A DNA stretch of 63,794 bases from Candidatus Magasanikbacteria bacterium GW2011_GWC2_37_14 (GTDB lineage Bacteria; Patescibacteriota; Patescibacteriia; Magasanikbacterales; UBA922), in contig LBSX01000011.1 in NCBI GenBank assembly GCA_000990355.1, positions 1 through 63,794 of the forward strand. Reading direction: 5' to 3'. Positions 1 through 12,944 of this stretch are shown here, piece by piece; within the stretch, counting starts at the first letter, position 1; every line of letters begins with the position of its first letter. A model generated the notes under the pieces. That model ran no database searches, was not told the DNA's origin, and saw nothing but the letters and a program-made list of their open reading frames with translations. The translations under genes and the position numbers were made by a program.

Positions 1-46
1 AAAGAGTTTTTGCTTTCTAATAAGTTTGTGGAGTAGAACCGCCCGA

Positions 47-81
47 GCAATACATCACTTAACACCTCGATAAGCGGCTCC
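47..81 (+). repeat. Boundary motif copy a (GCAATACATCACTTAACACCTCGATAAGCGGCTCC)
   Basis: Direct near-repeat of 522-554. Related copies at 1920-1948, 2907-2930, 3841-3865 and 5098-5126 share an ACATC-(A/C)-GATAACA core followed by a short dyad. Confidence 0.5.
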
Positions 82-108
82 AGAAAATTTCCTTAATTAT
101 AGTAATAT

Positions 109-137
109 GGAGTAAAATTTTCTTCCGACCCAAATTT
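109..137 (+). promoter_or_regulatory. Conserved AT-rich leader motif GGAGTAAAATTTTCTTCCGACCCAAATTT (copy 1)
   Basis: Near-identical to 1976-2004 (GGAGTAAAAAATTTTCTCGACCCAAATTT). Both copies are followed by a variable hairpin (136-185 here) and then AAACTTC...ACGTT. A -10-like TAGTAAT lies just upstream. Confidence 0.4.
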
Positions 138-270
138 CAATTCTTTCTTTTCTTTATTAACTGTAATAATGAAGAAAGAATTGAAACTTCGCTTCATCGG
201 GAAACGTTATCGGAAATATTGCTTTTTGACAAAATACTTTTAAGGGACTGTCAACCAAAAAAGGTGCAAT

Positions 271-444
271 ATGCACAGCCGAGCCGCGATGGACCAGCTA
301 CGCGCGTACGAGGAAGCCGTACAGTCGCCCTGCAGATGTCGAATCTGCGGACGAGAGTACTATCCTCAAAGGGGGGACGAACCGTGCCATCACGAGGAAG
401 AGACGGCTGGTGAACAGCCGATCGTCGAGGAGGAACACACATGA
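271..444 (+). CDS. 57-aa Cys/His/Glu-rich micro-ORF in G+C-rich insert (MHSRAAMDQLRAYEEAVQSPCRCRICGREYYPQRGDEPCHHEEETAGEQPIVEEEHT)
   Basis: ATG at 271 is preceded by AAGGTG (4-nt spacer). TGA lies at 442-444 and a 12-bp G+C hairpin follows at 454-483. The ORF is below the 60-aa cut-off of the supplied track. Coding status is unproven. Confidence 0.3.
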   Translation: MHSRAAMDQLRAYEEAVQSPCRCRICGREYYPQRGDEPCHHEEETAGEQPIVEEEHT

Positions 445-453
445 CGTCCCACG

Positions 454-483
454 GGCGAGGCCGACACCACGTCGGCGCTCGCC
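454..483 (+). terminator. G+C hairpin closing the insert (GGCGAGGCCGAC-ACCAC-GTCGGC(G)CTCGCC)
   Basis: 12-bp stem with one bulge, read directly. There is no U-tract, because the right arm of the 21-bp inverted repeat follows immediately. Confidence 0.4.
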
Positions 484-521
484 CAGTCCCTTAAAAGTAT
501 TTTGTAAGAAAAAAAGAAAAA

Positions 522-554
522 GCAATACATCCGATAACAGCCGATATGCGGTTC
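522..554 (+). repeat. Boundary motif copy b (GCAATACATCCGATAACAGCCGATATGCGGTTC)
   Basis: Direct near-repeat of 47-81. Its first half is also part of the right arm of the long inverted repeat. Confidence 0.5.
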
Positions 555-558
555 AAAA

Positions 559-597
559 ATAGTGCCCACTGAATTTTAATGGTGGCACTATTTTTTT
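559..597 (+). terminator. Rho-independent terminator
   Basis: ATAGTGCCCAC...GGTGGCACTAT stem followed by TTTTTTT (591-597). Confidence 0.6.
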
Positions 598-651
598 CAC
601 CCAAATTTTGGCCTTTTCTTTTGGGTGATAAAATGGTAAAATATATGTGCT

Positions 652-1077
652 ATGCAAGTATATAAAACTAAAATAAAGAAATTTCCTGGCACACAGTTTC
701 ACGAAGTACACGGACCGGCTTTCGGCCTTTATACCGAAATCAAAAAGAAAACAAAACGCCGAGTATATGTTAGGTCGGCGTATTTTAATAAAGATAAGAT
801 ATTCCTTGATTTGTTCTGGCATCATCTATTTGAAAAGTCTAACTGGCGGGATAGAGTCAGACGCATGAAGTATTTCGCTTGTGCTATTGAACTCATCCAA
901 AAATCACACTTTGAACCAAAAACAAAGGAAAACCCAAACAAACAAGGCGAAATACTTCATCGCTTTTATGGCACTACTGCAGAGAATGAGTTATTTTATG
1001 TACAAATCAAGGAAGACAAGAAAAAAGATCAAAAGTTTTTGATTTCAGTATTTCCATCAGATGGTGGTATGGAATAA
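652..1077 (+). CDS. Hypothetical protein, 141 aa, basic
   Basis: Clean ORF with host-like AT-rich codon usage. No motif I can assign. An extended -10-like TGGTAAAAT lies just upstream. Confidence 0.6.
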   Translation: MQVYKTKIKKFPGTQFHEVHGPAFGLYTEIKKKTKRRVYVRSAYFNKDKIFLDLFWHHLFEKSNWRDRVRRMKYFACAIELIQKSHFEPKTKENPNKQGEILHRFYGTTAENELFYVQIKEDKKKDQKFLISVFPSDGGME

Positions 1078-1144
1078 AATAAAAAAAGACCCTCCGCTAA
1101 GTGTGGTGTATAAACCACGGCCGAAAGCCTTTTTCTAAATATAT

Positions 1145-1152
1145 TGTATAAT
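1145..1152 (+). promoter_or_regulatory. Extended -10 element TGTATAAT
   Basis: Consensus extended -10, about 70 nt upstream of G+C-rich element copy 1 and 275 nt upstream of the GNAT start. Confidence 0.45.
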
Positions 1153-1220
1153 ATCTTTAAAACAATGTCAAGATGTGTCTGTGGACGAAAAGAAAAGGCC
1201 AAAACTTCGCATATCGGCGT

Positions 1221-1393
1221 ACGTTGTGACGGAATCACTCGCGCGAGCTCGTGTATTTCCGTCACAATGGGGCGCGCTTCCAGCGTTGTTGCGCTCCATC
1301 ACTCGCTCCGCTCGTGACTGGTCGCTACATCCCGCCATCCCATAAGCCTGTGGGCTTCTGGTCTGACGGGACGTCGCATAAGCGCGCCCCATT
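1221..1393 (+). ncRNA. G+C-rich structured element, copy 1 (candidate novel leader RNA or cassette-associated repeat)
   Basis: Identical to 2115-2290 except for a 3-nt indel. Contains a TTGTGACGGAA/TTCCGTCACAA hairpin, a 12-bp long-range helix (1266-1277 with 1382-1393) and a CCATAAGCC-TGTG-GGCTTCTGG hairpin. Strand assignment is tentative. Confidence 0.5.
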
Positions 1394-1426
1394 ATCTGAA
1401 ATTTTTTGTCCCTTAGCGCAACTAAC

Positions 1427-1903
1427 ATGGAAAATATAAAACTGCGACAATTTGAGGAAAAAGACAAAGAGGCTACCTACAATCTCCATATTGAGGGCTT
1501 GAAACAATCCGAAAGTTTTATCGATGATCCAAAAGCCAGAGAACAGCTTGACCAAGACCTGAAAAAGATTCGGGAAGAATATATTGATAGTGACGGAGAA
1601 TTTTTTGTAGCCATAATTGATGATAAAGTAGTAGGCATGGGCGCCTTGAGAAAAGTAGATGACATCACTGCCGAAATAAAAAGAATGAGAGTTAAGCCTG
1701 AGCTTCAGGGCAAGGGAATCGGCGCCTTAATTTTGGATAAGCTAATCGAAAAAGCAAAAGAGTTAGGCTACAAAAAATTGCTTTTGGATACATCGATAAA
1801 ACAAATTGTCGCACAAAGATTATATGAGTCGCGTGGTTTTAAGGAAAGTAGGCGAGGAGAAATATATGGCCAAGAAACTTTATACTACCAACGCGATATT
1901 TAA
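1427..1903 (+). CDS. GNAT family N-acetyltransferase
   Basis: Acetyl-CoA-binding motif region RMRVKPELQGKGIGALILDKLIEKAKELGYKKLLLDT...LYESRGF. The ATG at 1427 is preferred over the non-ATG ORF start at 1406. Confidence 0.85.
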   Translation: MENIKLRQFEEKDKEATYNLHIEGLKQSESFIDDPKAREQLDQDLKKIREEYIDSDGEFFVAIIDDKVVGMGALRKVDDITAEIKRMRVKPELQGKGIGALILDKLIEKAKELGYKKLLLDTSIKQIVAQRLYESRGFKESRRGEIYGQETLYYQRDI

Positions 1904-1919
1904 CACGAAGGGACAAAAA

Positions 1920-1948
1920 ACATCAGATAACAACGCATATCTGGCTCC
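1920..1948 (+). repeat. Boundary motif copy c (ACATCAGATAACAACGCATATCTGGCTCC)
   Basis: Contains the 6-bp dyad CAGATA-N8-TATCTG. Homologous to 47-81, 522-554 and 5098-5126. Confidence 0.5.
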
Positions 1949-1975
1949 AAAATTTTTCATTATTAGAATTAATAG

Positions 1976-2004
1976 GGAGTAAAAAATTTTCTCGACCCAA
2001 ATTT
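1976..2004 (+). promoter_or_regulatory. Conserved AT-rich leader motif (copy 2)
   Basis: GGAGTAAAAAATTTTCTCGACCCAAATTT. Followed by a TTTTCATCCC...GGGATGAAAA stem enclosing about 75 nt, then AACTTCAGATGATGCGTAAACGTT leading into copy 2 of the G+C element. Confidence 0.4.
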
Positions 2005-2114
2005 TCATCCCTTAGTTTTGATGAAAGTTTAGGCGGAGATAATAATACAAAGCATTGTCTGAAAGCAAAAGTTTATACTGCTAAGTCGGGATGAAAACTT
2101 CAGATGATGCGTAA

Positions 2115-2290
2115 ACGTTGTGACGGAATCACTCGCGCGAGCTCGTGTATTTCCGTCACAATGGGGCGCGCTTCCAGCGTTGTTGCGCTCCATCACTCGC
2201 TCCGCTCGTGACTGTGGGTCGCTACATCCCGCCATCCCATAAGCCTGTGGGCTTCTGGTCTGACGGGACGTCGCATAAGCGCGCCCCATT
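2115..2290 (+). ncRNA. G+C-rich structured element, copy 2
   Basis: Same sequence as 1221-1393 plus TGG inserted after ...CGTGACTG. Ends 33 nt before the ATG at 2324, the same spacing as copy 1 to the ATG at 1427. Confidence 0.5.
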
Positions 2291-2323
2291 GGACGAAATT
2301 ATTAAATCAAATTTTTTAATTAT

Positions 2324-2878
2324 ATGAATAACAAAGCTCTGAGAGCCCTTTTCCTGTACAATGGAATATTTGTAGGTGCCGCTGCCATGCTCGGTCCATT
2401 GTATGCTATTTATGTTGTGAAGTTTGTCGACGGTGTGACGGCCGTGAGTATTTCATGGGCAGCGTTTCTTGTTTCAACTTCAATATTCACATACATAGTT
2501 TCCAGGAAAGGTGACGGAATAAAAGAAAAAGAATATTTACTGCTTACTGGATATATTGTTAGAATATTGAGTTGGATTTTGTTGATTTTTGTCCACAATT
2601 TGACGTCATTAGTGTTGGTTCAAATTTTATTAGGTTTTGGTGAATCGCTCGGCACACCTTCTTTCAACGCATTGTTTGCTGATCATCTGGACAAAAATAA
2701 ACACATCAAAGAATATTCCAACTGGTCACTAATCGCAAATTTGACTTCCGCGGCAGGGATACTTGCCGGAGGATCAATTGTTAATAATTTTGGCTTTAAG
2801 GCATTATTCTTGTTTATGTCTGCTCTTTCGCTTGTTGCTTTCTTTGGTATATTATTGAAACCAAGAAAATTATTATAG
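2324..2878 (+). CDS. MFS-like polytopic membrane protein, half-size (184 aa)
   Basis: About six hydrophobic segments and MFS-like loop motifs (VSRKGDGIKEK, GESLGTPSFNALFADH). The length suggests a fragment or a half-transporter. Confidence 0.5.
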   Translation: MNNKALRALFLYNGIFVGAAAMLGPLYAIYVVKFVDGVTAVSISWAAFLVSTSIFTYIVSRKGDGIKEKEYLLLTGYIVRILSWILLIFVHNLTSLVLVQILLGFGESLGTPSFNALFADHLDKNKHIKEYSNWSLIANLTSAAGILAGGSIVNNFGFKALFLFMSALSLVAFFGILLKPRKLL

Positions 2879-2906
2879 CAAAAGGAACAAAAAATTTGAT
2901 TTAATA

Positions 2907-2930
2907 ACATCGCCCAACACTCGATATCCG
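2907..2930 (+). repeat. Boundary motif copy d (ACATCGCCCAACACTCGATATCCG)
   Basis: Aligns with 51-76. CTCGATATC (2919-2927) pairs with GATATCGAG (2980-2988). A partner ACATCAGATATCGAG lies at 2974-2988. Confidence 0.4.
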
Positions 2931-3045
2931 CAAGGGCTAAAGCCACATTTCGATTCCGTTTCACTTCATTGAAACATCAGATATCGAGAAACAATGTACA
3001 ATATTACTCAAGTTTGATAAACGATAAATAATTTAAAGATAAAAT

Positions 3046-3294
3046 ATGAAAGAAATATACACAAGGAGAGATTATTTAGCCCAAGACAGAACCCATCTTG
3101 CGAATGAAAGAACGCTTTTAGCATACTGGAGAACCGCACTTGCATTTTTAGGTTTAGGAGCATTTCTAATCAAATTTGTTCCTTCAGCATATTCTATGAC
3201 GTTAGCTTTAGTTTCAATACTTTTTGGGGTTGTATTATTTATTTATGGTATTGTAAGGTATCTCAAATATAAAGCAAAAATAAATGACAAATAA
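3046..3294 (+). CDS. DUF202 (YidH-like) small membrane protein
   Basis: Signature DRTHLANERTLLAYWRTALAFLGLG followed by two transmembrane helices. Confidence 0.8.
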   Translation: MKEIYTRRDYLAQDRTHLANERTLLAYWRTALAFLGLGAFLIKFVPSAYSMTLALVSILFGVVLFIYGIVRYLKYKAKINDK

Positions 3295-3721
3295 TCAAAC
3301 CCTGCTTCATACTGTCGATTGCTTCGCTCCCTCGTTCGCCTTGCAGTCTCACCACATAACACGGATTTTGAAGTTCGGATTTGCAGTCTTCACCCAAATT
3401 GCTACGCAACTTTTCAAAATCCAATATGTTATTTTACAATATTTAAGTGATAACGTTTCTTCATTTGAAAAAGAAACTCTATACCGAGAAGCTATTAAAT
3501 ATCAATACTGGGTAGCATTTTAGAAAATCTTAACATTTGATAGTTTTATTTTCATAAGTACAGCACTTATTTTACTGGTTGTACCTAAAAAAGAAAAACA
3601 GAAGTGAGTAGCTCCAGGGGACATTCACCCCTTTAATTCCCCTCTGTCCCCTGTCGCGTGATTGAAAAAATTTTGTTTTGTTTGATATAATTCAAAATAT
3701 AGTGAGATAACGAAAGAGAAA

Positions 3722-3870
3722 AGTGTACGTTCCCCCGCTGCGCTCTCATGCACTCCGCTACGCTCCGTGTCATTCGGGTCGGGCAGCAGCGTGTATCTGG
3801 TTCGCTCCCGCTGTCGCTCACCCATATCCGCCCAGGGCGGACATCAGATACACGCGTACGTTGTACGAAA
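3722..3870 (+). repeat. Divergent G+C-rich element related to the 1221/2115 family
   Basis: Shares GTACGTT(G) at both ends and CAGCGTGTATCTGGTTCGCTCC (compare 5110-5130). Contains an embedded ACATCAGATA at 3841 and ends ...ACGAAAT like the other copies. A -10-like GATATAAT lies at about 3682. Confidence 0.4.
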
Positions 3871-4024
3871 TAAATTTTTTATCCTTTTTTATATTTTCCC
3901 GTGATGATTAACGATTGATTGACGATCAAAGGAAGCGAAACAAAATTTTTCCATACGATTTTACAGGGGGTTTAGGTGTTTTTCGCCTGTGCGAACAGGC
4001 AAAAAACCGATTTTTATCTAAAAC

Positions 4025-4079
4025 TTGACCATAATTCCTTAATATGGTATACTGTAAATACTTAACTAAACCATATTAA
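4025..4079 (+). promoter_or_regulatory. Sigma70-type promoter with overlapping 10-bp inverted repeat (putative operator) for the Fic gene
   Basis: TTGACC (4025-4030), a 17-nt spacer, then TATACT (4048-4053). The inverted repeat is TTAATATGGT (4039-4048) and ACCATATTAA (4070-4079). Confidence 0.6.
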
Positions 4080-4089
4080 ACATTTTCTT

Positions 4090-5043
4090 ATGACTTATCT
4101 ATCACCAATTGTAAAAGCTCGTTTGGAAGAGAAACTAAAAAAACTCAACAAACTTCGTCCCCTGCCAAAATCTGCGGTGCAGAAACTTCGAGAAAAATTT
4201 CAAATTGAAATGACTTACAATTCAAACGCAATTGAAGGGAACTCTTTAACTTTAAAAGAGACATTTTTGGTTATTAACGAAGGCTTAACAGTGAAAGGAA
4301 AGCCATTAAAGGATCACTTAGAAGCAAAAGACCACCATGCTGCGTTGGAATATTTATATGACTTAATAGACAAAGACAAAAAACACACTGTTTCTGAAAT
4401 GCTTATAAAAAATTTACATCAAATTATTCTACAGGAAACCGATAAGGAGTGGGCTGGTCGGTACAGAAACGCGAATGTAATTATTGGCGGTGCTGACCAT
4501 ACCCCGCCAGATGCGCTACAAGTACCAAATTTAATGCGAGATTTAATTACTTTACTAAATTCACAAAAAAACAAGCTGAATATTGTTGAACTTTCTGCTT
4601 TACTACATCATAAATTAGTTTACATTCATCCATTTTTTGACGGTAATGGCAGAACAGCACGCTTGACGATGAACTTGTTTTTGATGCAAGCTGGGTATCC
4701 ACTCGTGGTAATTATGAAAACCGACCGGAAAAAATATTATGATGTGCTGGATAAAGCGGATAAAGGCAAATATGAACCGCTGATCAAATTTGTCGCTCAA
4801 TCTATAGAACGCTCGCTTGATATTTATCTCAAAACTTTAACACCTGCCACCACAAAACAAGAAAAATTTGTATCGCTGACTGAAATATCTAAAACCACGC
4901 CTTTTTCCGCCAAATACCTAAACCTGCTTGCAAGACAAGGAAAATTAGAAGCATACAAAGAGGGTCGTGATTGGTTAACTTCCAAAGGAGCAATCGAACG
5001 ATATTTGAAAAACAGAACCAGACAACGAAAAATTTCAAAATAA
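4090..5043 (+). CDS. Fic family protein (AMPylase/adenylyltransferase-type) with C-terminal HTH
   Basis: Canonical Fic motif HPFFDGNGRTARL. The C-terminal segment LTEISKTTPFSAKYLNLLARQGKLEAYKEGRDWLT resembles an excisionase/MerR-like DNA-binding domain. Confidence 0.9.
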   Translation: MTYLSPIVKARLEEKLKKLNKLRPLPKSAVQKLREKFQIEMTYNSNAIEGNSLTLKETFLVINEGLTVKGKPLKDHLEAKDHHAALEYLYDLIDKDKKHTVSEMLIKNLHQIILQETDKEWAGRYRNANVIIGGADHTPPDALQVPNLMRDLITLLNSQKNKLNIVELSALLHHKLVYIHPFFDGNGRTARLTMNLFLMQAGYPLVVIMKTDRKKYYDVLDKADKGKYEPLIKFVAQSIERSLDIYLKTLTPATTKQEKFVSLTEISKTTPFSAKYLNLLARQGKLEAYKEGRDWLTSKGAIERYLKNRTRQRKISK

Positions 5044-5097
5044 AAATGCCCCGATTACATTTTCCTCGCTGTGGCTCGGAATTAAGAATATATTATT

Positions 5098-5175
5098 ACA
5101 TCATATAACAGCGTGTATGCTGTTCCTCTTCGCTACACCCATATACTGACGCACATCGCATAAGCGCGCCCCATT
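5098..5175 (+). repeat. Truncated element: boundary motif fused to the 3' end of the G+C-rich element
   Basis: ACATCATATAACAGCGTGTATGCTGTTCC followed by ...TCGCATAAGCGCGCCCCATT. The last 22 nt are shared with copies 1 and 2. It lacks the 5' partner of the long-range helix and ends 29 nt before the ATG at 5205. Confidence 0.5.
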
Positions 5176-5204
5176 ATACGAAATATACTTAAAAAATAAT
5201 TAAT

Positions 5205-5795
5205 ATGAAAAAAATATTCTTCTTGCTGGCCGCAACAGTAATAATTATCTTGCCGGGATGTGGAATTGTTAGTAAACCAATTGTACAAATTCCCCTTCCC
5301 GCACCAGAATCCGAAAACACTTCAACTATTACACAACCTACACTATCCAACACTTCTGACACCGAATTCCAAAATAATTTAAAAAATAAAACTACCCAAG
5401 AACAAGCGGAATTAACATTAGTTCATTATTTTGATTTATTAAATCAAAAAGAATATGTCAAAACCACCATTTACAACGGCCATGGTTATGAAACTTTACA
5501 AAATTGGAATCCAGATACAAACCCCACCAACTATGCCGAACTAATTAAATATGGTTGTGAAAACAATGGTTGGCAATGTTTAAAAATAAAAAAAATAATT
5601 AGTAAAGAAGAAATCAACCCTAATGAATTTAAATTTGTAGTACAATTTTTAAATAATGACGGCACACTTTTTGAAAGAGGGCCTTGTTGTGGTTCTACGG
5701 AAGCCGAAATGCCTACCAAAAATAAATTTGAATTTATTGTAAAAAAAATAGATAATATTTTTAAAGTTATTACTAGTCCAGTGTATATACCATAA
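5205..5795 (+). CDS. Lipoprotein, function unknown
   Basis: Signal peptide with lipobox-like ILPGC. The mature part has four Cys residues and no recognisable domain. Confidence 0.65.
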   Translation: MKKIFFLLAATVIIILPGCGIVSKPIVQIPLPAPESENTSTITQPTLSNTSDTEFQNNLKNKTTQEQAELTLVHYFDLLNQKEYVKTTIYNGHGYETLQNWNPDTNPTNYAELIKYGCENNGWQCLKIKKIISKEEINPNEFKFVVQFLNNDGTLFERGPCCGSTEAEMPTKNKFEFIVKKIDNIFKVITSPVYIP

Positions 5796-5864
5796 AATCA
5801 CTTGTGGACAAATAAATTTGACCAAAATTTTTTAAACTGTTATTATAACTGTACAATTTATAAA

Positions 5865-6047
5865 TTATCTGTGGAACTGGGGTTTGATTCCCCGACTGTG
5901 CCGCAACGGTAAACCCTTTCAAGGGTAGTCCGATCTTCAGATAAACCCGCCTTGGCTCTTAAAGCTTCGGCGTGTCAAAGCCCGAGCAGGATTCTGTTGA
6001 TTTATAATCAACAAACTAAATTTCTGCCCGTTAGAGGCAGTTTTTTT
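5865..6047 (+). promoter_or_regulatory. Cobalamin (B12) riboswitch with SD-sequestering/terminator hairpin
   Basis: Core GGAACTGGGGTTTGATTCCCCGACTGTGCCGCAACGGTAAA matches the conserved GGGAA..GGTG.AA.TCC....CCGC.AC.GTAA pattern. B12-box-like AGTCCGATCTTCAGATAAACCCGCC is present. Closing helix TTATCTG (5865-5871) pairs with CAGATAA (5938-5944). Hairpin CTGCC-N7-GGCAG plus T7 (6024-6047) covers GAGG. Confidence 0.65.
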
Positions 6048-6587
6048 ATGAAAAATTTTTTAAAAAAATACAAATTCACGCTAATTCTAATATCAATAGC
6101 TTTGATACTATATTTGGGAATTGTTTTGATAATTTCAAACCTGCCTGCCCTGCCTACCGGACAGGTAGGCGGCAGGCAGGTTTCAAATCCTAAAAATCAA
6201 AGGATTGCCACACCTCGCTCGGGCGAGGTTCGCAATGACAGTGTAACCAATAGTCCAACCATCCCCCACCCTGAACCAGAATTTAAAAATCCAATTACTT
6301 TAAAAGTAAATGATGAGGAATACAAAATTGAATTGCAAGACAAGATGACAGTTTATGGTTTAATGCAGGCGCTGTCGGCTAGTTCAATAAAACCATTTAT
6401 CTTTACTACTATAGAATACCCTGGACTAGGACAATTTGTAGACAGTATCAACGACCTAAAAAACGATCGGCAAAATGGAAAATATTGGATTTATTATTTA
6501 AATGGCCAGCCCGCTCAAATCGGCATTTCTAATTACCTTTTAAAATCTAATGATTTAATTGAATGGAAATATGGCACATCATTTTAA
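6048..6587 (+). CDS. DUF4430 (transcobalamin-beta-like) domain protein, membrane-anchored
   Basis: N-terminal transmembrane helix. C-terminus GLGQFVDSINDLKNDRQNGKYWIYYLNGQPAQIGISNYLLKSNDLIEWKY fits the DUF4430 pattern. Start moved to M33 (ATG 6048) after the riboswitch. Residues LPALPTGQVGGRQV...IATPRSGEVRNDS are encoded by palindromic repeats. Confidence 0.7.
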   Translation: MKNFLKKYKFTLILISIALILYLGIVLIISNLPALPTGQVGGRQVSNPKNQRIATPRSGEVRNDSVTNSPTIPHPEPEFKNPITLKVNDEEYKIELQDKMTVYGLMQALSASSIKPFIFTTIEYPGLGQFVDSINDLKNDRQNGKYWIYYLNGQPAQIGISNYLLKSNDLIEWKYGTSF

Positions 6588-6588
6588 C

Positions 6589-8139
6589 ATGAACTCAAAT
6601 AGCCTGCCTACCGGTCAGGCAGGCAAATACCAGATAACATTTTTGATTATTTTAATTTTCTCTTTATTTTTTGTTTTGCCAGTAAAAACGAATGACACAC
6701 CACCAGAAGAAATACCAGTTATACCACCAGTCGAAGAACCAATTATTCCACCTGTAGAAGAACCAGTGGTACCTGCCGAAGAAACAACTTCCACCCCCAC
6801 AATTGAACCAGAGATAATTGAGCAAGATGTTTTAAACAGTGATGCTAGAAAAATCTTAAATTATTTTAAAACAGAACAAGATGAAACTGGGAAAATTATT
6901 AATGCCAATATTTCTGATTGGGCGATGATTTCTTTTGCAGCCAATGAACAATATGGACATGAAATTAAAAAACGTGGTGGAAAATCTTTATTTGAATATA
7001 TTTTAAATTATGATTTTACTGATGCCAGTGATTTGAATGTTTGTGCTACTTATCCACGTCATATTTTGGCACTCCTGGCCGCTGGAGTAGACAAAAATTC
7101 TACTCGCCCCCAAGAATTAAAAGAAAAACTAATTACCACTTGTTATAAAGACAATAATTTTGGCGATAATGGAATTAATGATGATGTTTTCGCTTTATTT
7201 ACTTTGTTGACCATGGACGAAACAAACGACAGTTCAGTAATTACAGACTTAATTAATACTATTCAATCTTGGCAATTAGAAAACGGGGCTTTTGCTTGGC
7301 CAGACTGGATGGACCCAAATATTAAAGTGGCTGGTGACGATATTACTGGAGTAACATTAAACGCTTTAATTTATGCTAAAAACAAAGGAATCAATGTTGA
7401 CCAAAATATAATTAATAATGTTAAAAATTATTTAAAAACTTCACAATTGCCTGATGGTGGCTGGGGTTATTATGGTGCACCAGACGTTTTGACTACCAGT
7501 TGGGTAATGATGGGGCTTAATGCTCTAAGTGAAAGCCAGGCAGAATGGACTGTGGAAGCTACAGGTAAAAACCCTTGGAGTTACTTACACCAAAACCTTA
7601 AAAACGACGGTTTTTACGAACCTTCTTGGTCCCCGGGATCAACTGATTGGTTTGCTACTAAACACGCTGTACCGGCCATTTTGGGGCTTTCCTGGCCAAT
7701 TGTAATGGAACCACGCGAGGAAGAAACTAACATTAGTAATGGACCAAATTATAACTTACCAATTATTGTTAAAAGCGATTTTCCCGAACTTTTTGCTAGT
7801 TCTACCACCACTACTTTAGAAACAACGACTACCACCCTAGAAATAGCTACTTCTACTTTAGAAATAGTTTCTACTACAATTGAAATTGTTACTACCACAC
7901 CAGAAATTACAACTATTGCACTTGATTTAAATAGTTCCACTCTGTCTGTGGTAACTTCTACTTTAGAAAACACAATTAGTACTACTACCAAAAAACAATT
8001 ACCAAAAAATAATTCAAAAACAAATAAAAAAATAATTCAAAAACCACAAAATAGTTTGCAATTAGCCTTGGCTTACTCGTGGTTTGGAAACTATCCTAAA
8101 TACTGGTATAATATTAACCAATTTAAATATAAATTTTAA
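6589..8139 (+). CDS. Secreted/anchored prenyltransferase- or terpene-cyclase-like repeat protein with Thr-rich C-terminal tandem repeats
   Basis: Motifs QLENGAFAWPDW and QLPDGGWGYYG are typical of the alpha/alpha-toroid repeat. The Pro/Glu-rich linker is PPVEEPIIPPVEEPVVP. The C-terminal TTLE/STLE repeats are encoded at about 7790-7990. The start choice (6589 versus 6559) is uncertain. Confidence 0.6.
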   Translation: MNSNSLPTGQAGKYQITFLIILIFSLFFVLPVKTNDTPPEEIPVIPPVEEPIIPPVEEPVVPAEETTSTPTIEPEIIEQDVLNSDARKILNYFKTEQDETGKIINANISDWAMISFAANEQYGHEIKKRGGKSLFEYILNYDFTDASDLNVCATYPRHILALLAAGVDKNSTRPQELKEKLITTCYKDNNFGDNGINDDVFALFTLLTMDETNDSSVITDLINTIQSWQLENGAFAWPDWMDPNIKVAGDDITGVTLNALIYAKNKGINVDQNIINNVKNYLKTSQLPDGGWGYYGAPDVLTTSWVMMGLNALSESQAEWTVEATGKNPWSYLHQNLKNDGFYEPSWSPGSTDWFATKHAVPAILGLSWPIVMEPREEETNISNGPNYNLPIIVKSDFPELFASSTTTTLETTTTTLEIATSTLEIVSTTIEIVTTTPEITTIALDLNSSTLSVVTSTLENTISTTTKKQLPKNNSKTNKKIIQKPQNSLQLALAYSWFGNYPKYWYNINQFKYKF

Positions 8140-10860: not shown

Positions 10861-11500
10861 AACAACCACCGGCCTTAGGGCCGGTGGCTTTGTTTTTGCC
10901 GGCTTAATCGCCGGCAGGGTGGCGTTTGCTTTAGTTAAGGATTTTGTCGAAGAGAGAGGGTTGTTCTACTTCGTTGTGATGTTCTTGGTGAGTGACGTAA
11001 CGACGGATGACATACTCATCAATGCCAATTGTTGAAACAAAGTAACCTCTAGCCCATAATGATTCTTTCTCGTACAACCCATGTTTACGTTTAATCTTTT
11101 TCTTAAGCCAGGCTGAGGATTTACCTTTGATAATTTGCATGGTATACGAGATTGAATCGCGTGGTGTGGTTAAGAGACACATGTGTATATGGTCTTCTTG
11201 AATATTAAGCTCAATTATCTCCCAATGTTTCCATTTGCAAATTGACTCAAATATTCTTCGTAGTTCTTGTTTGATCTTCTCTGCCCCCAATACTTTACCA
11301 CGGTATTTAGGTGTCCACACTAGATGGTACTTTAAATCGTAAAAACAATGTGATAATGTACGGATAGTACGTTTGTGTTGTTTCATAGACGTATGAATTG
11401 TTAGTTACTAAAGCCACCCTGCCGGGTGGCTTTAGTATACGACGTTGTCTTCAAACGTACACCCCAGCTACGCTGGGGGTTTTTAGGATAATAAAAAACC
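10861..11500 (-). mobile_element. IS200/IS605-family element carrying tnpA only
   Basis: The Y1 transposase ORF is flanked by subterminal hairpins: CCACCGGCC..GGCCGGTGG and GCCGGC..GCCGGC at 10866-10915, and AAAGCCACCC..GGGTGGCTTT and CCCCAGC..GCTGGGG at 11410-11480. Exact ends are not determined. Confidence 0.7.
10931..11386 (-). CDS. tnpA: IS200/IS605 family Y1 (HUH) transposase TnpA
   Basis: Motifs YHLVWTPKYR, the HUH motif HIHM in EDHIHMCLL, and a catalytic Tyr region YVIRRYVTHQE. Typical size of 151 aa. Confidence 0.9.
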   Translation of the reverse strand: MKQHKRTIRTLSHCFYDLKYHLVWTPKYRGKVLGAEKIKQELRRIFESICKWKHWEIIELNIQEDHIHMCLLTTPRDSISYTMQIIKGKSSAWLKKKIKRKHGLYEKESLWARGYFVSTIGIDEYVIRRYVTHQEHHNEVEQPSLFDKILN

Positions 11501-12092: not shown

Positions 12093-12944
12093 ATGAAATC
12101 AGGTTTTGTAACCCTTGTTGGACGATCCAATGTAGGAAAATCAACCCTTTTAAACACCCTAGTTGGCACCAAAATCTCGGCCACTTCTTTTCGTGCCCAA
12201 ATGACTAGAAACGAAATACACGGAGTAATGACTACCCCCGAAGGCCAAGCTGTTTTTGTGGATACCCCGGGAATTTTTAAAGATCACCGGAACTTACTTT
12301 CGGCCAAACTTACCAACCGCGTAAAAGACATTTTAGGTAATCAACCGGATTTAATTATTTATGTAGTAGACCCTAGTCGCGAAATTGGTGATGAAGAACG
12401 CACCGCTTTTGGTTTAATTCGTCACTTAAGCATGCCAAAAATTTTAGTTATTAATAAATCTGATTTATCACCTCGTGAAAGAAAATATCAAGAAAGCTAC
12501 GAAAAAATGAATAGTGAATTTGATGCGGTTTTTTGTTTATCTGCTTTACGCGCCTCACACATTCAACCTCTAAAACAAAAAGTAATTGAACTTTTACCAG
12601 AAGGAGAATTAATGTACCCACAAGAACAATGGACCAACATTGATAACTATTTTTGGATTGCCGAACTTATTCGCGAAAAAATCTTTTCGGTTTTTGATAA
12701 AGAAGTACCTTATTCCACAGCAGTAACGGTAGATAATGTAGAAGAAAAAGAAGATATTATGGTAATCTCGGCCAGAATTTTAACCAATGCCGACCGTTAC
12801 AAAAAATTATTAATCGGCTCGAGAGGTAGAAAAATAAAAGAAGTTGGCATTTTGGCTCGTCGCGAATTAGAAGCGGCTCAAAATAAAAAAATATTTTTGG
12901 AACTAGAGGTAGAAGTAGACACTCACTGGGTAGAAAGAATTTAA
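12093..12944 (+). CDS. era: GTPase Era
   Basis: G1 motif GRSNVGKST, G3 motif DTPG, G4 motif NKSD, and a C-terminal KH domain (IGSRGRKIKEVG). Confidence 0.9.
   Translation: MKSGFVTLVGRSNVGKSTLLNTLVGTKISATSFRAQMTRNEIHGVMTTPEGQAVFVDTPGIFKDHRNLLSAKLTNRVKDILGNQPDLIIYVVDPSREIGDEERTAFGLIRHLSMPKILVINKSDLSPRERKYQESYEKMNSEFDAVFCLSALRASHIQPLKQKVIELLPEGELMYPQEQWTNIDNYFWIAELIREKIFSVFDKEVPYSTAVTVDNVEEKEDIMVISARILTNADRYKKLLIGSRGRKIKEVGILARRELEAAQNKKIFLELEVEVDTHWVERI

Follow-up and report, generated by a model that had tools for sequence, protein, structure and literature searches.

What lies between the genes at the left end of a contig from the Candidate Phyla Radiation (CPR), where unrelated reading frames follow one another on a single strand and one motif recurs in the spaces between them? 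We addressed this question in a 63,794-nt stretch of DNA from Candidatus Magasanikbacteria bacterium GW2011_GWC2_37_14, a member of the CPR (contig LBSX01000011.1, positions 1-63,794; henceforth the window). The original prediction had described positions 1-5800 as a cassette array punctuated by recombinase sites, resembling an integron or a cluster of attC sites lacking an integron integrase (CALIN). Our analyses support this description: the locus has a recombinase, an attI-like site and cassettes that vary between genomes. Window 1-5800 is the distal two-thirds of a chromosomal gene-cassette array with a total length of ~7.7 kb. The array is probably an integron-like cassette platform that is anchored at a dif-like site and run by a Xer-type recombinase.

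A tyrosine recombinase gene and a dif-like site at the head of the array

We extended the contig leftwards with an 82-kb groundwater scaffold (L001), which was found by an exact-protein match of a 141-amino acid (aa) open reading frame (ORF) in the window. Window position x corresponds to L001 position x+9349, then x+9382 and then x+9412 (two small indels). In L001 the array extends from 6866 to ~14581 on the + strand and thus begins 2.5 kb left of the window. Its gene order is DsrE, SHOCT and GDSL lipase (all on the + strand), followed by the window genes. The array had been predicted to run off the left edge of the window, with a recombinase to be sought there. A gene for a 281-aa tyrosine recombinase is indeed present 2.6 kb left of the window edge (L001 5911-6756, - strand), on the opposite strand from the array genes and divergent from them, next to an attI-like site. 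For comparison we fetched the contexts of eight orthologues of this recombinase, including the loci L008, L011 and L092-L095.

The orthologues share 65-87% identity across Candidatus Magasanikbacteria. The catalytic residues R-K-H-R-H-Y are invariant, and the enzyme is a simple tyrosine recombinase of the Xer family. Its best solved relative is the integron integrase VchIntIA (PDB 2a3v, E=2e-51), ahead of XerA and XerD. The alignment with VchIntIA is in two pieces (query 13-183 with IntI 12-186, and query 199-276 with IntI 242-319), and ~40 IntI residues within the skipped segment 187-241 have no counterpart in this pairwise comparison. When IntI-type proteins of Vibrio, Azonexus and Calditrichia were included in a multiple alignment, the Magasanikbacteria proteins were seen to lack ~45 residues. 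The IntI-specific domain (~35-55 residues around patch III, with the I2 helix) that marks the IntI clade was not found in the recombinase. Among NCBIfam models, it passes only that of XerA (NF040815 recomb_XerA_Arch, 253 bits, cut-off 220). The integron-integrase model TIGR02249 scored 243 bits, under its cut-off of 265, and PRK15417 scored 167 against 435. The enzyme is not an IntI and looks like the Xer recombinase of its lineage, with a dif-like site as its target. By the definition used in the field, a locus lacking the IntI domain, as this one does, is not an integron. A tblastn search detected no paralogue of the recombinase in the window or in the fetched flanks.

The site itself, GTTGGCATAA-AGGTAG|TTnnnnGAAAT, lies ~110 bp upstream of the recombinase gene and at the start of the array (L001 ~6845-6866). 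The pattern GTTGnnATAA-AGGTAG|TT occurs ~110 bp upstream of every orthologue examined. Across the 12 loci compared, the site is conserved up to ...AAAGGTAG and diverges after the TT. It has the 28-bp organization of dif-type sites, in which a 6-bp spacer separates two inverted arms of 11 bp each. Its sequence with the most frequent right arm is AGTTGGCATAA-AGGTAG-TTATGTGAAAT, and 18 out of 22 arm positions are equal to those of the Escherichia coli dif site, GGTGCGCATAA-TGTATA-TTATGTTAAAT. We searched metagenome contigs with the pattern of the integration site; among the 120 matches listed, 4 adjoined a close orthologue of the recombinase (68-81% identity). An attI-like site adjoining the recombinase gene and followed by co-oriented cassettes, the arrangement of integrons, was found in L001, L008, L011 and L092-L095. 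A dif-like palindrome immediately upstream of the gene is likewise present in CPR relatives that are more distant (e.g., ATTTCAGATAGAGATTAGTTATCTGAAAT in a Gracilibacteria contig). Recombinase and site therefore resemble the Xer/dif pairs of single-recombinase systems such as XerS and XerH. As regards a location at the replication terminus, the loci disagree: L001 and the window show a convergence of GC skew and gene orientation near window 8.7-9.1 kb, and the flanks in L011 and L095 look divergent; skew tracks the coding strand throughout.

Further observations concern the recombinase region. A conserved palindrome (TATACCCCACTGGGCTATAAG-like) is located between the recombinase start codon and the dif-like site (L001 6788-6812) and is also present in L008, L009, L011 and L093-L095; it may be an operator or promoter element. 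The array of L094 holds a LexA-like gene (7305-7898). Several contigs from Magasanikbacteria and from CPR and DPANN relatives (L009, L010, L013, L016, L028, L033 and L037) stop 130-600 nt upstream of the recombinase start codon, a pattern that would fit assemblies breaking at an array that is polymorphic or rich in repeats. Among the matches listed, the nearest relative of the recombinase from outside the CPR (46% identity, also without the IntI insertion) is in a Spirochaetota metagenome-assembled genome, L012, where a ParA-like two-gene unit follows the recombinase and is itself followed by one attC-like hairpin (…CAGCATATAAC…GTTATATGAAAG…; 12756-12863, + strand). Related platforms may thus exist outside the CPR.

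The recurring motif is half of an attC-like site

In the window, seven or eight imperfect palindromes resembling attC have the motif as their left half; they are 85-210 nt long except for one of ~700 nt. We aligned 12 compact sites from three genomes and obtained the layout R''(ACATCnnnnAAC)-A-L''(11-12 nt)-loop-L'-(A)AAC-R'(GTTnnnnGAAAT), in which the loop holds a conserved CCCA(T/A)AT. The second arm directly abuts the motif, and the sequence with which it pairs is located 60-190 nt downstream. The short dyad CAGATA-N8-TATCTG that had been proposed as a recombinase core does consist of inverse half-sites (R'' and L''); the stronger symmetry is long-range, between L'' and L', and a further one pairs the first 20-45 nt of each cassette with its last 20-45 nt. 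The recurring half-sites that had been listed are real, with two corrections. The copies at 2974-2988 and 3841-3865 are right halves (L' plus R') of the sites at 2907-3004 and 3774-3871, and the list had missed the degenerate sites 3349-3440 and 3774-3871 as well as a site with the gene of the 141-aa protein in its loop. Canonical attC cores had been reported as lacking, which does not hold: the sites contain the integron-type core triplets AAC/GTT.

We assessed whether the motif is specific to the array. The half-site ACATCNNNNAAC occurs 10 times in the window, compared with an expectation of 1.99 ± 1.31, and none of 100 shuffles reached 10. Half of these occurrences (5 out of 10) are in 52-5109, all on the + strand, at 52, 527, 1920, 2907 and 5098. 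A covariance model of the whole site retrieved six copies in the window (52-217, 1920-2129, 2907-3004, 3349-3440, 3774-3871 and 5098-5184) and had no match in 5185-63794. Among 221 kb of Magasanikbacteria loci, the model gave 36 matches, all within arrays and co-oriented with them, and none on the far side of any recombinase. As a control, we searched 1.02 Mb around 80 unrelated recombinases and obtained a single match. The control loci came from a recombinase-profile search of genome contigs, with relatives at ≤ 46% identity and no Magasanikbacteria among the matches listed; they also served to display the IntI insertion in the multiple alignment. The motif is therefore non-random, and the whole-site model is confined to the array.

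The L stem is kept by compensatory changes. In the 12 training sites, 90.7% of the L''/L' positions are paired and 10 out of 12 pairs show compensatory changes; none of 500 shuffles reached the observed values, and no slid register approached the observed pairing. In 19 independent sites, 95.8% of the positions are paired and 9 out of 12 pairs are compensatory. Single-stranded DNA folds of the sites have two stems with a 3-nt bulge between them. In all sites the spacer is asymmetric, measuring 6 nt between R'' and L'' and 9-10 nt between L' and R'. Of the 7 sites folded, 6 have a more stable fold as the bottom strand than as the top strand. The sites thus share with integron attC sites the imperfect R''-L''...L'-R' palindrome, the AAC/GTT triplets, the conservation of structure over sequence, and the unpaired spacer with extrahelical bases. 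We searched Rfam with the whole window at gathering thresholds and with positions 1-7000 in E-value mode and found no family for the sites or for the GC-rich (rich in guanine and cytosine) elements beside them; the same searches gave only a tRNA and a sub-threshold adenosylcobalamin (AdoCbl) riboswitch.

We also observed a second hairpin, with the loop ATTCACCCCT...CCCTCT, located 3' of cassette ORFs and 5' of an attC-like site. Copies are present at window ~3600-3660, L001 8301-8319 and 13035-13057, L008 5998-6020 and L011 8397-8419, and in L093 and L095. Among the 219 loci examined, this hairpin is confined to array-bearing Magasanikbacteria loci, where it has the same orientation as the cassettes. 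It may act as a terminator or bind some other protein.

Cassette junctions coincide with the G|TT of the sites

Array genes are bracketed by inverted repeats of 20-45 nt (206-250/484-538, 1392-1414/1908-1930 and 2289-2317/2889-2917). At their outer ends, these repeats have TTnnnnGAAAT (left) and ACATCnnnnAA (right), and the bases at the n positions are complementary. Junctions are at or within a few bases of G|TT, and the nucleotide of exchange can be resolved only to the GTT(nn) stretch. Each cassette therefore starts with TTnnnn and ends with the complementary nnnnAA, and this terminal inverted repeat is extended by 15-45 bp that are specific to the cassette. We compared the start of each cassette with the reverse complement of its end. 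At least 20 out of 26 positions match in 13 of the 23 consecutive pairs, compared with a background of 10.5 ± 3.6 (maximum 21); the 10 failing pairs are decayed or missed sites. Within one attC-like site, the variable positions of R'' and R' are often unpaired. This mismatch would be expected if R' were a hybrid that belongs in part to the next cassette, as it is in the arrays of integrons. The boundaries are thus those of integron cassettes, at the G|TT of R' and with the first bases of the cassette complementary to its own R''.

A 203-bp GC-rich element that encodes no protein also marks the junctions. L001 holds four copies with 100% identity to each other, and the sequences flanking them begin to differ precisely at G|TT and CCCCA|TT; the integration site itself is occupied by one of these copies. 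The element has its own R''-L''...L'-R' and folds strongly. Because of these G|TT and A|TT bounds, because of its own R''-L''...L'-R', and because it is absent from the integration site of most relatives, we consider it to be a non-coding cassette, and on this basis rejected a structured RNA, a bridge-RNA-like guide and a miniature inverted-repeat transposable element as readings of the GC-rich elements. G+C-rich elements had been described as attached to the motifs; those at 1224-1391 and 2118-2288 are instead separate non-coding cassettes at G|TT junctions. We propose that the GC-rich elements are non-coding cassettes or foreign GC-rich cargo and no part of the recombination motif.

The two window copies are shorter than those of L001, without 33 and 30 nt, respectively, that are found in all four L001 copies (e.g., L001 10572-10773 and 11499-11700); the stretch that they lack includes the R''-L'' of the element. 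This length difference may be real microheterogeneity or an assembly difference.

A ~130-nt 5' leader (…GGGCTATCGCCCAG…AGGGGnATAAGGTGTTTTCTCCGCTCCGCT…), 81-88% identical between copies, heads cassettes with unrelated cargo (DsrE, rhodanese, type I restriction-modification and Fic). Copies are at L001 7067-7194, L095 9892-9766, L008 9868-9763, L092 1865-1760 and L094 1268-1142, with a weaker relative at window ~3960-4020. The leader may be a portable promoter or leader module.

Seven sites and their cassettes in the window

All genes of window 1-5800 had been assigned to the + strand and to specific families, and our ORF and Pfam results agree. The window opens in the 3' end of the GDSL-lipase cassette (1-63), whose gene begins further left (L001 8771-9385, Lipase_GDSL) and whose terminal R'' ACATCACTTAAC is at 52-63. 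The start of this cassette, TTAAGTGAAAT (L001 8706), is complementary to window 52-62, and its ends match at 20 out of 26 positions. The first attC-like site (52-217, + strand, as are all sites and cassettes below) comprises R'' 52-63, L'' 65-77, L' 189-201 and R' 206-217, with G|TT at 206|207. Its model score is weak (17.6 bits) because the loop is long; repeat analysis showed it to be homologous to 1943-2018.

The next cassette (207-538) has terminal inverted repeats at 206-250/484-538, which match over 28 nt at 93% and 22 nt at 91%, and contains a 57-aa Cys-rich ORF (271-444, + strand). The ORF has no Pfam match and lies within a segment (251-483) of 58-62% GC in a genome of ~36% GC; the cassette frame is otherwise AT-rich. 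This suggests cargo taken from a GC-rich donor. A cassette with a 61-aa ORF in L095 (2583-2182) has ends resembling those of this one.

The second site (527-1234) carries the 141-aa ORF (652-1077, no Pfam family) in its loop. It comprises R'' 527-538, L'' 540-551 and L' 1208-1219, with G|TT at 1223|1224, and its L'' and L' are complementary (GCCGATATGCG/CGCATATCGGC). An inner hairpin formed by 603-622 with 1188-1207 (20 nt, 95%) flanks the gene, a homologue of which is present in the L180 array.

Copy A of the GC-rich non-coding cassette (1224-1391, with a 33-nt internal deletion relative to the 203-bp copies of L001 and otherwise identical to them) precedes the GNAT acetyltransferase cassette (1392-1931; ORF 1406/1427-1903, Pfam Acetyltransf_1, E=3e-21). 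The terminal repeats of the latter (1392-1414/1908-1930) match over 23 nt at 91%, and its start and end match at 22 out of 26 positions. The third site (1920-2129; 25.6 bits, E=0.008) comprises R'' 1920-1931, L'' 1932-1943 and L' 2100-2112, with G|TT at 2117|2118. It is followed by copy B of the non-coding cassette (2118-2288, with a 30-nt internal deletion relative to L001) and by a cassette for a half-size MFS transporter (2289-2918; ORF 2324-2878, Pfam MFS_1, E=2e-18), which has terminal repeats at 2289-2317/2889-2917 (29 nt, 90%) and a start/end match of 23 out of 26.

The fourth site (2907-3004) scored 61.5 bits (E=3e-11) and shows the L stem in its single-stranded DNA fold; the copy that had been listed at 2907-2930 corresponds to its R''-L'' half. 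The DUF202 cassette (2994-3360; ORF 3046-3294, Pfam DUF202, E=9e-17) lies between model matches, and its R' is degenerate. After the fifth site (3349-3440; 71.9 bits, E=1e-13) comes a cassette without a convincing ORF (3430-3786) that has the second hairpin described above and a GC-rich tail. The sixth site is GC-rich (3774-3871; 62.1 bits, E=2e-11) and is followed by the Fic/HTH cassette (3861-5109; ORF 4090-5043 with Fic plus HTH_17, Pfam Fic E=7e-24). The seventh and last site (5098-5184; 64 bits, E=8e-12) is 81% identical to the last site of the L008 array. The terminal cassette (5174-5800) has a 196-aa lipoprotein-like ORF (5205-5795). The array ends there because no attC-like site comes after it (no model match beyond 5184). 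The next feature is a conserved AdoCbl riboswitch with a DUF4430 operon, which forms the distal flank in L008 too.

Cassettes differ between genomes while the flanks are conserved

We compared both sides of the recombinase gene between genomes. In the closer genomes, the 3' side shows synteny of Dus, FolD, GT2 and DnaX; the co-oriented genes on the 5' side form a different set in each genome examined. L001 and L008 have both flanks in common (Dus/FolD/GT2 on one side, the AdoCbl riboswitch and DUF4430 on the other) and share none of the ~ten genes between them. A comparison of orthologous loci had been suggested as a check, with invariance as the outcome that would count against an array; related genomes instead carry different cassettes between the same flanks. 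Cargo of the other arrays includes type I and II restriction-modification systems, MutH, Abi_alpha, Abi_C, Fic, HD, NUDIX and methyltransferases.

Single cassettes are found again in other arrays, where they occupy different positions. The Fic cassette of L001 is 84.9% and 83.7% identical at the DNA level to those of L095 and L094, respectively, compared with 72-73% for the recombinase genes. A GC-rich non-coding cassette at window ~3610-3893 (L001 13022-13305) is 84% identical to L093 2842-2535 (recombinase genes, 71.7%), and the 203-bp cassette is 95% identical to its counterparts in L009 and L010 (recombinase genes, 84%).

Two contigs from two other samples (L217 9101-10000 and L218 2121-3020) encode an identical recombinase and have the integration site and one GC-rich cassette, followed directly by the MFS cassette. 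They skip DsrE, SHOCT, the lipase, the 57-aa and 141-aa ORFs and GNAT. This shorter array reflects either a deletion between identical GC-rich cassettes or an assembly collapse.

Proposed mechanism

Alongside the observed architecture, junctions, covariation, specificity and variability between conserved flanks, we infer that recombination involves folded sites, exchange of a single strand at G|TT and resolution by replication. We propose that an attC-like site would fold in single-stranded DNA, probably that of the bottom strand, and that the recombinase would bind its R and L boxes; the asymmetric spacer between the boxes (6 versus 9-10 nt) would leave 2-3 bulged bases. One strand would be exchanged at G|TT, with a double-stranded dif-like site for insertion or with another attC-like site for excision. 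The junction would then be resolved by replication, as in integron attC × attI recombination and in CTX-phi phage integration at dif. Each insertion would regenerate a complete dif-like site by the recombinase gene, since every cassette begins with the consensus right arm TTnnnnGAAAT. We speculate that the cassette-specific extension of the repeats, which would lengthen the hairpin only in the excised circle, could favour capture over loss.

The rationale for folded sites is threefold. Pairing is selected at non-conserved positions, only the folded form puts a proper R box, spacer and L box at the observed junction, and the spacers are non-homologous between partners. Classical two-strand exchange by tyrosine recombinases needs spacer homology. 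The spacers of the attC-like sites differ from each other and from that of the integration site, which is therefore evidence against such an exchange.

Although we favour the reading of a Xer-run, integron-like platform, we note that several points weigh against it. The recombinase is without the insertion that integron integrases use to read extrahelical bases. It is also vertically inherited, like a housekeeping gene, at 65-87% identity across the phylum, so that adjacency of the array could partly reflect Xer/dif pairing. One conserved pair of the L stem, a G.T when the top strand folds, would become A.C in the bottom strand; this pair favours the top as the folding strand, but free energies favour the bottom. 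Hairpin covariation would also fit a role at the RNA level. The cassettes reach 7 kb and, unlike integron cassettes, have long terminal inverted repeats (15-45 bp) that are specific to each cassette. In the contigs examined, we saw neither a recombination product nor a circular cassette, and no strain-level rearrangement that was unambiguous. We rejected L217 and L218 as proof of excision: they may be assembly collapses, because their breakpoint is the repeated GC-rich cassette and the skipped cassettes are present as short contigs (L004 and L005) from the same samples.

Alternative explanations

The strongest alternative, which we nevertheless consider unlikely, is Xer recombination on duplex DNA only. 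The array would consist of stacked integrative mobile elements exploiting Xer (IMEX) or 'dif modules', the R''-6 nt-L'' unit would be an ordinary 11-6-11 site, and the hairpins would be irrelevant; cassettes would move between duplex sites and the chromosomal dif, as proposed for the pdif modules of Acinetobacter. Much of the locus suits such a system: the recombinase passes the XerA model (253/220 bits) and not the integron-integrase model (243/265), its integration site is dif-like, a dif-like palindrome is found upstream of the gene in other CPR relatives, the left half-site has the canonical 6-nt spacer, and half-site orientation alternates along the array as among pdif sites. However, duplex sites do not need the compensatory changes that keep L'' and L' complementary at non-conserved positions. 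The spacer of 9-10 nt between L' and R' is over-long for a duplex tyrosine-recombinase core, and the differences between site spacers, and between these and the integration-site spacer, would block the second strand exchange. The junctions, moreover, are on the R' side, where a proper site exists only upon folding. Acinetobacter-type pdif modules were rejected on related grounds, as only R''-L'' has a 6-nt spacer, there is a single recombinase and the locus is chromosomal.

It is more doubtful still that the sites act in RNA, or are generic intergenic hairpins (terminators, processing sites or elements like repetitive extragenic palindromes, REP) in a hypervariable island, next to a housekeeping Xer recombinase that is unrelated to the turnover. 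In favour of this reading, the sites lie between co-oriented genes, so that they are transcribed, and have G.U-compatible pairs on the sense strand; the arrays also contain a further family of hairpins and a 5' leader common to several cassettes, and the recombinase is vertically inherited. This explanation does not account for half-sites that share the right arm TTnnnnGAAAT of the dif-like site, for the covariation of cassette ends, for an identical 203-bp element placed exactly at G|TT in four sites including the dif-like one, or for the confinement of the sites to the recombinase-adjoining array in every genome examined; nor did the sites match an Rfam family.

Mobilization of hairpin-bounded units by an HUH (Y1) transposase of the IS200/IS605 or REP-associated tyrosine transposase (RAYT) type, with the tyrosine recombinase uninvolved, is highly improbable: a 151-aa Y1_Tnp ORF does lie ~5.7 kb past the array at window 10931-11386 (- strand), but such genes are near the L001/window array only and absent within 10 kb of the arrays in the six other loci (L008, L011 and L092-L095), all of which adjoin the tyrosine recombinase, and the sites have inverted half-sites of the tyrosine-recombinase type, AAC/GTT cores and a match to the dif-like site. 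On these grounds we rejected IS200/IS605 and REP-RAYT elements. A shufflon, which the original prediction had also suggested, consists of invertible segments in the 3' end of one gene acted on by an Rci-type recombinase. We rejected it since sites and genes are co-oriented here and the units are whole unrelated genes.

Other features of the window

Beyond the terminal cassette, the AdoCbl (B12) riboswitch-like element (5852-5993, + strand) scored 43.7 bits (E=1e-5), below the Rfam gathering score of 50. It is directly upstream of the DUF4430/DUF6580 operon, and element and operon are both present in L008 as the distal flank of the array (~480-119, minus strand). At 7811-7915 (+ strand), at least four units of a 21-nt tandem repeat are 67-71% identical to the reference copy and fall in the Thr/Ser-rich C-terminal part of a 526-aa ORF (6559-8139). 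The ORF of the IS200/IS605-type Y1 transposase (Pfam Y1_Tnp) has an identical gene in L001.

Comparison with known systems

We compared the array with previously described recombination systems. We found no description of such arrays, and no report of CPR integrons, in open-access papers and preprints, and the IntegronFinder surveys in this literature do not list CPR. Tools of the IntegronFinder type would miss the recombinase and call no complete integron because they require the IntI-specific domain, and similar arrays may be widespread and uncounted.

The integrons of archaea (Ghaly et al. 2022, PMC9668308) are likewise integron-type platforms in uncultivated lineages with small genomes. 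Their IntIs were found with IntegronFinder and have the IntI-specific domain, an insertion that served as the criterion for calling IntI (PMC9668308), whereas the recombinase described here would fail this filter. The pdif modules of Acinetobacter resemble the array in that modules lie between inverse pairs of Xer-type half-sites in alternating orientation, with sites shared by neighbours. They differ in that their boundaries are duplex XerC/XerD sites (11-6-11) carried on plasmids and remote from the xer genes. Our array is on the chromosome, with the recombinase gene as its anchor; its stems show covariation, and the spacer of every other site measures 9-10 nt.

Single-recombinase Xer systems (XerS/difSL, XerH/difH and archaeal XerA/dif) and the Xer-related recombinases of candidate phyla, which form their own 'Cand' subgroup (PMC8138268), are similar in having one vertically inherited enzyme of ~275 aa and a palindrome of the 28-bp type within ~100 bp of its gene; the XerA model is the one that our enzyme passes. 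These systems are described only as chromosome-dimer resolvases, and no cassette array or attC-like hairpins have been reported beside them.

IMEX, and CTX-phi in particular, are also among the known systems nearest to the array. CTX-phi integrates at dif by a folded single-strand logic (PMC4792948), in which a folded single-stranded attP recombines with dif1 through XerC and the product is resolved by replication. It shares with the array a Xer-type enzyme without I2, a dif-like target, a hairpin of two inverse dif-like halves with a non-homologous spacer, and an insertion that regenerates a dif-like site and so permits tandem stacking. Unlike the hairpins described here, the CTX-phi stem has no bulged bases (PMC4792948). 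Our units are small gene cassettes without replication or phage functions, number up to ~14 per array, and have the recombinase gene in the locus.

Sedentary chromosomal integrons (e.g., the Vibrio superintegron) are alike in having a recombinase gene divergent from a co-oriented array at an adjoining integration site, species-typical R''-L''...L'-R' palindromes with AAC/GTT, an asymmetric unpaired spacer and bulged bases, a G|TT junction, and accessory and defence-type cargo; VchIntIA is the nearest solved enzyme. They differ in their integrase, which has the ~45-residue IntI-defining insertion (the I2 helix region, which contacts extrahelical bases). In the array, by contrast, the integration site is dif-like, the host is a CPR bacterium, cassettes may be multi-gene, a 5' leader is shared and genes inside an attC loop are possible. 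The integron insertion has been described as essential for integron function (PMC8138268). The array would be a dedicated gene-capture platform in a group whose horizontal acquisition is poorly understood, with cargo that includes restriction-modification, Abi, Fic and apparently foreign GC-rich DNA. We advance only tentatively the broader idea that in Magasanikbacteria, and perhaps in the CPR more widely, the Xer recombinase and dif site that serve in housekeeping also function as an integron, with an I2-less enzyme that captures and stockpiles cassettes at dif via folded single-stranded hairpins. On this tentative idea, hairpin-based cassette capture would need no IntI-specific domain, and the platform would be a main route of accessory and defence gene turnover in these minimal genomes.

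Integron integrases are thought to descend from Xer recombinases and to have gained the ability to recombine single-stranded hairpins with the I2 helix (PMC4792948, PMC7790495). In the open-access literature searched, no natural system linking the two was described. An array with every architectural hallmark of integron cassettes, headed by a Xer-type, I2-less enzyme at a dif-like site, bears on the origin of integrons and raises the question of whether hairpin-based cassette capture preceded the I2 domain or arose twice. If the tentative idea of a housekeeping Xer/dif pair with an added integron role holds, the array would represent either a natural intermediate or an independent convergence between Xer/dif-based IMEX and integrons.

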